Positions 1 through 1,780 of a DNA stretch of 64,000 nt are shown piece after piece. The notes under the pieces are model-generated. The model was not told the origin of the DNA. It worked only from the letters and a program-made list of their open reading frames with translations, and did not search any database. This stretch comes from Candidatus Margulisiibacteriota bacterium (GTDB lineage: Bacteria > Margulisbacteria > WOR-1 > O2-12-FULL-45-9), in contig JAYEOW010000004.1 in NCBI GenBank assembly GCA_034723395.1, forward strand, positions 1 through 64,000, read 5' to 3'. The position numbers and the translations under genes are program-made. Within the stretch, counting starts at the first letter, position 1. Every line of letters begins with the position of its first letter.

Positions 1-120
1 AAAATGATCAAACGGTTAAGTTTCGGCTTTCGCAATGTCCAAATTTACATCAGAAAAATGATGCTGGCGTTTATTCCCATTACTTATCTAGGAGGTTTAG
101 TTTGGCACACTTTTTGCTGA
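1..120 (+). CDS. ISL3-family transposase, C-terminal fragment (cut by window edge)
   Basis: Frame 1 reads KMIKRLSFGFRNVQIYIRKMMLAFIP...TFC*, matching the KxIKRxxxGFRN C-terminal motif of ISL3 transposases. Confidence 0.8.
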   Translation, partial: KMIKRLSFGFRNVQIYIRKMMLAFIPITYLGGLVWHTFC

Positions 121-126
121 GGAGCC
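1..126 (+). mobile_element. Right end of an ISL3-family insertion sequence
   Basis: The transposase tail ends in CACACTTTTTGCTGAGGAGCC; its reverse complement begins GGCTCC, typical of ISL3 termini. Confidence 0.7.
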
Positions 127-201
127 CCATTTATTATAAGGCGATTTTTTCAGCAGCTGTCTCCAGCCGATTTTTCCGTCAAATCGGCATTTTTTACCTT
201 T
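127..201 (+). repeat. Left 75-bp inverted repeat
   Basis: CCATTTATTATAAGGCGATTTTTTCAGCAGCTGTCTCCAGCCGATTTTTCCGTCAAATCGGCATTTTTTACCTTT, checked base by base against 1709->1635. Confidence 0.97.
166..195 (+). terminator. Intrinsic-terminator-like hairpin inside the left inverted repeat
   Basis: GCCGATTT-7nt-AAATCGGC followed by ATTTTTT. Confidence 0.45.
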
Positions 202-272
202 GTCCCGAATTTAATTCGGGACCGGCCAAAAACAAATTTTTTCTGCCCCCTATTCGGGAGGGAGGTGTCCAC

Positions 273-1769
273 ATGAAGTATATTCTCTATGCCAGGAAGT
301 CAACCGAGTCTGAGGAAAGACAAATCATGTCTATCGACGCCCAGATAGCAGAATTAAAAGAATTTGCCGCCAGAGAAAAACTTGAAATCGTCGCCTCGCT
401 CTGCGAGGCAAAAACTGCCAAAGAACCCGGACGAATAAAGTTCGCAGAAATGTTAAATTTCATTGAATCCGGAAAGGCAGAGGGAATTTTGGCTTGGCAT
501 CCCGATAGATTAGCCAGAAACTCGGTTGATGGAGGTAGAATTATCTACCTGCTGGACACAGGAAGGATGAAAGCGCTCAAATGCCCCACTTTTTGGTTTG
601 AGAACACCCCTCAAGGCAAGTTTATGCTCAACATTGCCTTTGGCCAAAGCAAGTACTTCATAGACAATCTCAGTGAGAATGTTAAACGCGGGTTCAGACA
701 GAAAGTAAGGCAAGGGCTTTGGCCATCCGGCCAGGCTCCAATTGGCTATCTGAATAACAAGACTACCCGTGGTATAGATATTGACCAAGAAAGAGCCCCT
801 CTTATTAGAAGGGCATTTGAGCACTACTCCACTGGAGACAACACGCTCAAGGTAATAGGAAGCATGCTTAAGGAAAGTGGTTTCAGAAGCCGTAAAGGTA
901 ATGCCTACTCCACTTCCTGTGTCCAGCGTATACTGCAAAATCCTGTGTACTACGGCGCAATAAGGTTCAACAACGAGATATCCGAAGGAAACCATGAGCC
1001 AATTATTTCCAAGCAACTTTTTGATCAGGCTCAAGCAGTAATGGCCAACAGAGGCAAGAAAAAGCGAAAGAGAAAGCATGAATATAGTTTTGTAGGCCTA
1101 ATGAAATGCGGCGCTTGTGACTGCGCCATTACTGCTGAAAGGCAAAAAGGACACGTGTATTACCGCTGTACAAAAAAGCGCGGTGTATGCGAAGAGAAGT
1201 ATCTCAGAGAAGAAGAATTAGCAGATCAATTCAGGGAGGTTATTCAAAAAGTTGCTTTGCCTGATGATTGGGCCAAGCTAATGTTAGCAAAACTAAGCCA
1301 GGAGAAAGCTGATGCCAACAGCAACCATCAGGCAGTTGTTCAAAATCTCCAGACTCAAAGAAAGGACATTGAACAAAAATTAGATCAATTGCTAGATTTG
1401 AAGCTCGGAGGCAGCATTGATGCCGAGGAATATCGTAATAAGAAAAACCAGCTATCTAACCAAAAAATTGGAATTGGACAAAGAATACGAGATTTTGAAC
1501 AACATGGAAATAATTGGCTCGAACCGATGAAAGCCCTCATTAATTCCTCATGCCAAGCCAAAATTCTGATCAAGACAAAAAAATATAATGATGTTCATAC
1601 ATTTCTAAAAAATATCGGCTCGAACTTTATTTTAAAAGGTAAAAAATGCCGATTTGACGGAAAAATCGGCTGGAGACAGCTGCTGAAAAAATCGCCTTAT
1701 AATAAATGGTTGGGGGAGAAGGATTCGAACCCTCACAGGCGGAGTCAGAGTCCGCTGGTCTACCATTAA
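273..1769 (+). CDS. Large serine recombinase (resolvase, recombinase, zinc ribbon and coiled-coil domains), 498 aa
   Basis: YARKS catalytic motif, DRLAR motif, CGAC...YYRC...C zinc ribbon and coiled coil; GGAGGT SD before ATG 273; C-terminus runs antisense into the tRNA. Confidence 0.95.
   Translation: MKYILYARKSTESEERQIMSIDAQIAELKEFAAREKLEIVASLCEAKTAKEPGRIKFAEMLNFIESGKAEGILAWHPDRLARNSVDGGRIIYLLDTGRMKALKCPTFWFENTPQGKFMLNIAFGQSKYFIDNLSENVKRGFRQKVRQGLWPSGQAPIGYLNNKTTRGIDIDQERAPLIRRAFEHYSTGDNTLKVIGSMLKESGFRSRKGNAYSTSCVQRILQNPVYYGAIRFNNEISEGNHEPIISKQLFDQAQAVMANRGKKKRKRKHEYSFVGLMKCGACDCAITAERQKGHVYYRCTKKRGVCEEKYLREEELADQFREVIQKVALPDDWAKLMLAKLSQEKADANSNHQAVVQNLQTQRKDIEQKLDQLLDLKLGGSIDAEEYRNKKNQLSNQKIGIGQRIRDFEQHGNNWLEPMKALINSSCQAKILIKTKKYNDVHTFLKNIGSNFILKGKKCRFDGKIGWRQLLKKSPYNKWLGEKDSNPHRRSQSPLVYH
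1635..1709 (-). repeat. Right 75-bp inverted repeat, inside the recombinase 3' end and including the tRNA CCA
   Basis: Exact reverse complement of 127-201. Confidence 0.97.
1641..1670 (-). terminator. Intrinsic-terminator-like hairpin downstream of tRNA-Gln, inside the right inverted repeat
   Basis: Same hairpin plus T tract as in the left repeat, about 36 nt after the tRNA CCA on the minus strand. Confidence 0.5.
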
Positions 1770-1780
1770 CCTATCCCCCA
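1707..1780 (-). tRNA. tRNA-Gln(CTG)
   Basis: TGGGGGA/TCCCCCA acceptor stem, GCGGA-CTCTGAC-TCCGC anticodon arm, GGTTCGAATCC T arm, encoded CCA. Confidence 0.97.

Follow-up and report, generated by a model that had tools for sequence, protein, structure and literature searches.

A probable serine integrase island at the tRNA-Gln gene of a Candidatus Margulisiibacteriota bacterium, with inverted attachment-site arms around its recombinase gene

The window, by which we mean the whole stretch of DNA analysed, covers positions 1 to 64,000 of contig JAYEOW010000004.1 (C4) in the genome of a Candidatus Margulisiibacteriota bacterium (GCA_034723395.1, here G000; 1.68 Mb in 55 contigs), and its position 1 is the end of that contig. 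Near this end a gene was found that encodes a large serine recombinase (LSR) of 498 amino acids (273-1769, plus strand, with the ATG at 273 and the stop codon at 1767-1769). It is associated with a perfect inverted repeat of 75 nt, whose arms at 127-201 and 1635-1709 are 100% complementary according to the repeat finder and have 1433 nt between them, and with a tRNA-Gln(ctg) gene which ARAGORN placed at 1707-1780 on the minus strand. The right arm ends in TGG (1707-1709), which is CCA on the opposite strand. Both the repeat and its ending on the tRNA CCA had been reported in a preliminary description made from the sequence alone, and both were confirmed. The 75-nt arm has no third copy anywhere in the 1.68-Mb genome. 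Very probably the segment 127-1709 forms the recombinase module within an island that measures about 8.9 kb and was inserted by the LSR at the 3' end of tRNA-Gln(CTG).

The LSR gene is the sole supported gene between the arms; the evidence from open reading frames (ORFs) and domains bears out the preliminary description, which had seen no other gene in 127-1709. The protein has the composition of a serine integrase, with a catalytic Resolvase domain containing the nucleophilic serine (PF00239, E 3.4e-19, residues 4-149), a Recombinase domain (PF07508, E 1.5e-18) and a four-cysteine zinc ribbon (PF13408 Zn_ribbon_recom, E 2.6e-08). In an alignment of 18 sequences S10, R8 and other residues are invariant, as are the cysteines C279, C282, C299 and C306. 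The nearest solved structures, judged by sequence match, are those of SPbeta YokA/SprA and of the A118 integrase, and residues 168-398 match the C-terminal domain of the latter (PDB 4kis). Homologues number thousands, measure some 480-520 aa and share 55-74% identity; by name they come from Nitrospira, Saganbacteria/Margulisbacteria, Patescibacteria, Brocadia and Thermodesulfovibrionales. No second copy of the LSR was found in the genome.

The LSR reading frame crosses the whole right arm, which provides its last 26 codons, and continues antisense into the tRNA, the tail after the Trp (TGG, that is, CCA) being the tRNA in antisense. The right-arm peptide, KGKKCRFDGKIGWRQLLKKSPYNKW, is conserved among the homologues, whose C-termini retain it and often continue after the Trp as ...RDSNPR, which is a tRNA T-arm read antisense. 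In two further proteins, P0001 (865 aa) and P0069 (817 aa), the C-terminal tail of a second type of serine recombinase runs directly into an LSR of this family truncated at ...AFGQSKYY, and it looks as if one recombinase element had docked inside the gene of another.

The same layout is present in named-genome loci, in relatives of G000 and in numerous other bacteria that have not been cultivated. Among 80 metagenome loci, 49 were assessable, that is, they contained the gene start, at least 200 nt upstream of it and the right end. A flanking inverted repeat of at least 60 nt was observed in 40 of these 49, with a length of 75-158 nt; identity is at least 95% in 37 of these repeats, among them 21 perfect ones. 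For 27 of these 40 loci the right arm shares 4-8 nt (in 21 cases 6 nt) with the 3' end of a tRNA on the opposite strand, and these tRNAs have 10 amino-acid specificities. The preliminary description had proposed exactly this comparison, looking for long inverted repeats that end at a tRNA CCA in the flanks of homologues, and most of the assessable loci have such repeats. The inverted repeat far exceeds what chance would produce, and related loci show the same layout again. It might still be suspected, since the left arm lies 126 nt from the contig end, that the repeat is an artefact produced there by a chimeric or fold-back join, an objection which had also been foreseen. We regard this as extremely improbable. 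The contig overlaps of 125-127 nt exceed the 75-nt repeat, independent public short-word contigs of the probable source run cover 98-156, 172-1664 and 1680 onwards without any difference and include both the inner and the outer junctions, and the loci that share the layout come from many other assemblies.

Positions 1-126 (plus strand), at the very end of contig C4, are the right end of an insertion sequence (IS) of the ISL3 family, with the last 39 codons of the transposase and the terminal repeat. Identical stretches of 125-127 nt stand at the ends of C4, C16, C18, C27 and C39, the left end of the same IS was found at the ends of contigs C5, C13, C33 and C55, and on C10 a copy with 78% identity codes for a DDE_Tnp_ISL3 transposase (E 2.6e-30). 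In 4/4 pairs of left and right ISL3 contig ends the flanks share 9 nt. The 9-bp target-site duplication of the window is CCATTTATT (127-135), and the second copy is formed by the last 9 nt before the left end of the IS on C33, the end of C33 (...GTCAA CCATTTATT / IS) thus pairing with the start of C4 (IS / CCATTTATT ATAAGG...). The preliminary description saw mismatches immediately outside the arms. On the left side the mismatch is the ISL3 end, and before the insertion the repeat measured 78 nt, the CAA on C33 mirroring the TTG at window positions 1710-1712.

When the two contigs are joined, the left arm plus the CAA of C33 is contiguous with a segment, here called y (C33:36552-36656, just outside the left arm), and is the mirror of the arm at the right-hand junction (attR). 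A perfect inverted copy of y, of 105 nt and named y', lies 7.2 kb further left at C33:29363-29467. The two inverted pairs, of 78 nt for the recombinase and of 105 nt (y'/y) for the cargo, overlap in a 3-nt core, CAA/TTG, and in two relatives (L089 and L007) both pairs are visible and abut likewise. The island extends from C33:29363 to window position 1712, about 8.9 kb if the IS is left out, and it opens with attL (host, TTG, y'), which is followed by a 7.1-kb cargo and then by a spare attP (y, CAA, left arm); the recombinase gene comes next, and attR (right arm, TTG, tRNA) closes the island. With the core written as TTG, attL reads ...CGCAAAATTTA / TTG / ACTATTTACG..., the spare site on the reverse strand ...ATAATAAATGG / TTG / ACTATTTACG..., and attR ...ATAATAAATGG / TTG / GGGGAGAAGG.... 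These three sites, together with an empty site in a relative (G004), share TTG and differ at their sides, as the attachment sites of a serine integrase do.

Inside the island there is thus a whole attP (right arm, core and y') in inverted orientation. The 75-bp repeat is one attP half-arm present in two copies, at attR and at the spare site, and this half-arm also forms the end of the LSR coding sequence. The right arm (1635-1709, plus strand) is the P arm of attR. In the inverted spare attP the P arm is the left arm (127-201, plus strand), an inverted copy of the last 75 nt of the recombinase gene; at 166-195 it has a terminator-like hairpin with a T run behind it. The native part of the tRNA-Gln(CTG) gene (1710-1780, minus strand) forms the B' arm, and its T-loop motif, TTCGAAC, starts 12 nt from the arm end. 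The TTG core (1710-1712), common to attL, the spare attP, attR and the rebuilt attB, holds the presumed 2-nt crossover. The ISL3 element sits inside the spare attP, 3 nt from the core and within the 25-bp half-site, and has most likely disabled it, as proper binding of the enzyme would no longer be expected there. At all ISL3 insertion sites of this genome (5/5) a TTGAC box resembling a -35 element lies directly against one or other end of the duplicated 9 nt; at the window's site TTGAC is made of the att core TTG and the AC of the y arm.

The preliminary description would have been refuted by a conventional direct-repeat att site far to the left combined with an inverted repeat that plays no part in recombination. 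The findings come near to this, as an attL does lie far to the left, on C33. However, apart from generic T-arm matches the genome contains no direct repeat of the tRNA-Gln 3' end, and the inverted repeat itself consists of att-site arms.

In most relatives the tRNA-Gln(ctg) gene lies upstream of nadB on the opposite strand, and the search for empty tRNA-Gln sites which the preliminary description recommended was successful in G004. Here the 31 nt preceding the tRNA agree with the C33 flank of attL at 27/32 aligned positions, and on the tRNA side 65/74 agree. Since this empty site matches both sides, the C33 flank and the tRNA must have been neighbours before the insertion. At least nine further relatives, among the 18 sites compared, have the tRNA-Gln(ctg) beside nadB with neither a recombinase nor an encoded CCA. 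The CCA is absent from the G004 site, from the rebuilt site and from at least nine other element-free sites, whereas occupied sites have ...TGG at the tRNA, and it is therefore supplied by the element. The CCA at the end of the right arm is thus present as first described, but it derives from the element and is not native to the tRNA gene. Three sites without a recombinase (L135, L141 and L147) have kept the TGG, together with 10 further nt of the arm in L135 and 5 in L141, and we read them as remnants of the element.

Other peculiarities of this locus were observed in the relatives. In L131, L137 and L140 (genomes G009, G032 and G033) about 16 nt from the 3' end of tRNA-Gln, CCA included, are found displaced by some 70-100 nt from a tRNA-Gln whose own 3' end differs in sequence, as if a very small insert had taken the place of the tRNA end. 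Moreover, in at least 10 of 40 relatives the contig ends within about 1 kb upstream of nadB, in the region of the tRNA-Gln, which suggests that the tRNA-Gln/nadB site is often occupied by repeats that break assemblies.

The preliminary description had taken 127-1709 for a minimal element of IS size with only an integrase gene, whose excised circle would carry a palindromic attP of about 150 bp. Such a self-contained, IS-like element with terminal repeats would agree with the absence of any other gene between the arms, with the perfection of the arms and with the many homologues that occupy contigs of 1.6-1.9 kb. We find it very unlikely, because the sequence outside the left arm, namely y and a composite sequence next to it, is conserved between elements at different tRNAs and so belongs to the element; in such comparisons similarity extends some 300 nt outward beyond the left arm, and homology stops at the outer end of the right arm. 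The distant inverted partner of y and the core shared by three junctions also speak against it, and the G004 empty site joins to the tRNA the C33 flank and not the flank of the left arm. The short contigs are explained by assembly breaks at repeats. The mobile unit does not end at the inverted repeats of the recombinase gene but extends 7.3 kb leftward, as far as C33:29363, and the attP, being composed of right arm, TTG and y', is no palindrome. The part of the earlier proposal that holds, as far as it was checked, is that the element targets a tRNA.

The cargo of the island includes genes for restriction-modification and defence. They encode a 76-aa XRE control protein, a 677-aa type II restriction enzyme (PADLOC REase_II, E 7.5e-115), a D12-class methylase, an N6/N4 methylase fused to LexA-like DNA-binding and S24 peptidase domains, and an MBL-fold protein matching the candidate defence family PDC-M48B. 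Two ORFs of 288 aa and 144 aa had no match. To the left of the island lies a host gene for an MscS-type channel. The methylase fusion has 491 aa (C33:31861-33336, equal to L150:4862-6337) and could be a damage-responsive methylase of the island's restriction-modification system.

A further signature was found at the two sides of the core. In the 27 loci examined the T-loop motif (TTCGAAC or a near variant) starts 10-12 nt out on the tRNA side, and a mimic of it starts 15-17 nt out on the y side. The offset, y minus tRNA, is exactly 5 in 24/24 scorable loci, the other three being without a y-side motif; the window has 17 and 12. Rutherford et al. (2013; PMC3783163), in their passages on attachment sites, report that in attB the zinc-ribbon motif stands closer to the centre by 5 bp than it does in attP. 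The agreement identifies y as an attP-type half-site and the tRNA as an attB-type half-site, and it may be the T-loop sequence that the zinc-ribbon domain recognises.

In the mechanism that we propose, the zinc-ribbon domain would read the T-loop sequence of the tRNA gene, and the y arm would imitate the T-loop with the motif shifted outward by 5 bp, in the manner of an attP half-site. The crossover would fall within the TTG in the acceptor end, and the arm of the element would then supply the CCA that the native tRNA gene lacks. The spare site would permit inversion of each module, and an excised circle with two copies of attP could dock through either of them. Because both copies of each arm are identical, inversion of a module leaves every junction unchanged. 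The long arms are probably kept identical by gene conversion, and homologous recombination between arms of 75-158 nt may be responsible both for flipping and for the identity of the arms. The map, the junctions, the empty site, the 5-bp offset and the recurrence in relatives are findings of the analysis; that the enzyme catalyses these reactions, that the modules invert, what the spare site serves for and what the complementary blocks described below do are inferred from sequence.

Several relatives appear in arrangements that bear on inversion. In L061 the left arm borders the tRNA and the right arm a y-type flank, so that the module is flipped relative to the tRNA. In the protein P0062 a piece of the gene named b below runs directly into a sequence like piece a and then into an XRE domain, which is the 3' junction expected of a rearranged form. 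L115, in which y', k, b and a stand in direct order upstream of a decapitated gene without a left arm, looks like a simple integrated form. The preliminary description had offered as its second possibility a cassette that flips its own recombinase gene. In favour of this, the arms are the same att half-arm in inverted orientation, L061 is flipped and P0062 is rearranged, but inversion was not observed in G000, where the spare site is split by ISL3.

If flipping were the whole function, the locus would be a fixed, domesticated switch of the Hin type, in which the LSR inverts its own gene and controls the expression of neighbours without transposition. The indifference of the junctions to inversion and the flipped module of L061 would fit such a switch, and so would the occupation of the same tRNA-Gln/nadB position in G000 and G019, whose recombinases are 63% identical as against 67% for NadB. 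We judge it unlikely. Relatives differ in whether this same tRNA carries the element, and one has an exact empty site; members of the family are found at tRNAs of 10 specificities, with several copies in some genomes; and identities of 60-65% across phyla point to transfer between lineages. The enzyme is moreover a 498-aa LSR of the integrase type, with Recombinase and zinc-ribbon domains, and not an invertase of about 190 aa with a C-terminal helix-turn-helix as in Hin and Gin, and the left site is here split by ISL3.

The reading as an inserted island has to be weighed against several points. The join of C33 to C4 is inferred, as the body of the IS is absent from the genome bin and no reads span the join. 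Neither the circle nor the empty-site or inverted junction of G000 was seen in the one run that contains the stretch, whose short-word contigs cannot bridge a 75-nt repeat, and two sister runs contain almost none of it, so that this absence weighs neither way; L061 is the single flipped relative. Nine of the 49 assessable loci have no long inverted repeat, and in 13 of the 40 that do have one no tRNA was called beside the right arm. The island showed no identified directionality factor, and in the published model, as the passages of PMC3783163 on directionality set it out, only attP x attB recombines in the absence of this factor, so that an inversion between attR and the spare attP driven by the enzyme is not expected. 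Finally, the island model explains neither the short inverted copies of pieces of the gene (a, b and k, and 350-392 near attL) nor the complementary blocks within it.

The short inverted copies concern a piece of the 5' leader, a (224-246, plus strand), the piece k with codons AKTAKEP (410-428, plus strand) and the piece b with codons LKNIGSNFIL (1605-1633, plus strand). C33 holds exact inverted copies of a and k and a 28/29 inverted copy of b, joined in a composite a'-b'-k' at C33:36478-36551, the inner end of y at the spare site. Position and order of this composite are kept in some 30 relatives, where the copies are 92-100% (mostly at least 95%) identical to the relative's own gene. At the inner end of the attL y' (C33:29468-29547) the reverse complements of 374-392 and 350-372 are found with a 31-nt hairpin between them. 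Another small perfect hairpin, GTCCCGAATT T AATTCGGGAC (202-223, plus strand), lies between the left arm and the 5' leader and is present in some subfamilies only. Two explanations based on these pieces were rejected. If attP were the b/a junction on C33 and the arms a palindromic attB, a core could not be placed at the three junctions, and 0-11 variable nt lie between a' and b'. A circle of 1410 nt from a to b with an endless ORF fits the window, but among 30 loci the length is divisible by three in 11 and the frame endless in one.

The coding sequence itself is strongly self-complementary. Between 273 and 1633 there are five perfect complementary blocks of 14-17 nt, all of them nested (484-500 with 1550-1566, 551-565 with 913-927, 996-1011 with 1505-1520, 1011-1024 with 1244-1257 and 1335-1349 with 1489-1503, plus strand, spanning 484-1566 in all), and no direct repeat of that length. 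In 1199 windows of the same size from the genome the mean number of such blocks is 0.023 and the maximum 2. At least one complementary block of at least 12 nt was found in 70/70 homologous coding sequences, with a mean of 5.2, compared with 0.11 in synonymous-codon shuffles, 0.28 in 18 nadB genes and 0.54 for direct repeats. Folding against synonymous shuffles gave z values of -10.3 for the plus-strand RNA, -6.0 for the minus-strand RNA and -8.0 for the plus-strand DNA. The blocks are nearly free of wobble, with 13 single-mismatch extensions among 686 blocks, of which four are G.T and two A.C. A mutation bias arising from the position between long repeats was considered and rejected, as the cargo also lies between long repeats and has complementary blocks at background level.

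The partner positions of the blocks differ between subfamilies, and for this reason searches were made sequence by sequence; RNAalifold, run on the 70-sequence codon alignment, returned only one helix of 7 bp. In eight recurrent helices 64.5% of the cells are Watson-Crick pairs, against 22-35% for slid partners and 58.5% for column shuffles, and two-sided changes number 425 against a maximum of 254 in 200 shuffles; relatedness of the sequences inflates both comparisons. No strand asymmetry of G.U versus A.C was detected over the eight helices (612 versus 562), and both strands fold far better than their shuffles. Some motifs of the LSR protein, such as HEPIIS and GNNWL, are mutual reverse complements at the DNA level.

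One could imagine that the element passes through a single-stranded stage, as single-stranded DNA or a long structured RNA, in which the inverted attP copies pair into a duplex of about 180 bp and the gene folds through its nested, co-varying blocks. This idea we hold to be doubtful. If true, it would explain why the arms are perfect far beyond the half-site of about 25 bp, why the blocks are free of wobble, why the recombinase gene is structured and the cargo is not, and how an island without transfer genes has spread across phyla. We know of no described precedent for a serine-integrase element that works in the form of a folded single strand. The nearest parallels, the CTX phage and the attC sites of integrons, use tyrosine recombinases.

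On the minus strand at 1781-2482 a free-standing ORF of 233 aa, resembling LAGLIDADG homing endonucleases (PF14528, E 1.4e-12), abuts the 5' end of tRNA-Gln. In L135 and L147 the reverse strand of the flank on the 3' side of the tRNA reads, as judged by eye, as a GIY-YIG-like protein.

Serine integrases are well known, as is integration at the ends of tRNA genes. P4-type islands and many integrative and conjugative elements use tyrosine integrases, insert at tRNA 3' ends and restore the tRNA end, with the integrase gene adjoining the tRNA; they leave direct repeats of the tRNA 3' end. The island described here likewise inserts at a tRNA 3' end, keeps the gene whole and has its recombinase next to the tRNA. 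Unlike them, it has a serine recombinase, shares only 3 nt between its junctions and leaves no direct repeat of the tRNA, its conspicuous repeats being inverted. Hin and Gin are small invertases acting on 26-bp sites with an enhancer and are fixed in the chromosome, and hin lies inside the segment that is flipped. The island resembles them in that a serine recombinase gene lies between inverted copies of a site and inversion keeps the junctions, and differs in its integrase-type LSR, in arms of 75-158 nt and in being mobile as a whole.

The closest known enzymes are the A118/LI integrase and SPbeta SprA/YokA, which have the same three domains and a short core shared at the junctions. In phage integrases of this type, according to the attachment-site passages of PMC3783163, the outer motif is 5 bp nearer the centre in attB, as it is at the tRNA of the island. 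Unlike these integrases, that of the island targets the 3' ends of tRNA genes, with the T-loop as the probable recognised motif, its attP overlaps the enzyme's own last codons, and a second complete attP is kept in inverted orientation. Unlike the phages, the island carries a small defence cargo and no identified directionality factor. What seems to be new is the combination of T-loop targeting, an attP in the last codons of the enzyme and an inverted spare attP that frames two modules, which we could not find described. Our full-text literature searches, which do not extend to subscription journals, listed no paper on serine recombinases with long inverted repeats at tRNA ends, and neither "inverted attP" nor "palindromic attP" occurs in the papers listed, in agreement with the preliminary description, which did not recognise the layout as a known family.

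The strongly self-complementary coding sequence is a puzzle of its own. For the family, homing on the T-loop would mean a nearly universal target and would explain the spread over Patescibacteria, Nitrospira, Brocadia and Saganbacteria/Margulisbacteria. Serine integrases are valued tools of genome engineering, and their natural targets are mostly protein-coding genes of a single host species; this family may offer integrases with predictable sites in almost any bacterium. The inverted spare attP would provide two separately invertible modules and a live attP in the chromosome, which goes beyond the textbook cycle of an integrase and invites work on how directionality is achieved without a known directionality factor. 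For the bacteria that harbour them, which have tiny genomes, these islands would be small vehicles for restriction-modification and defence genes.

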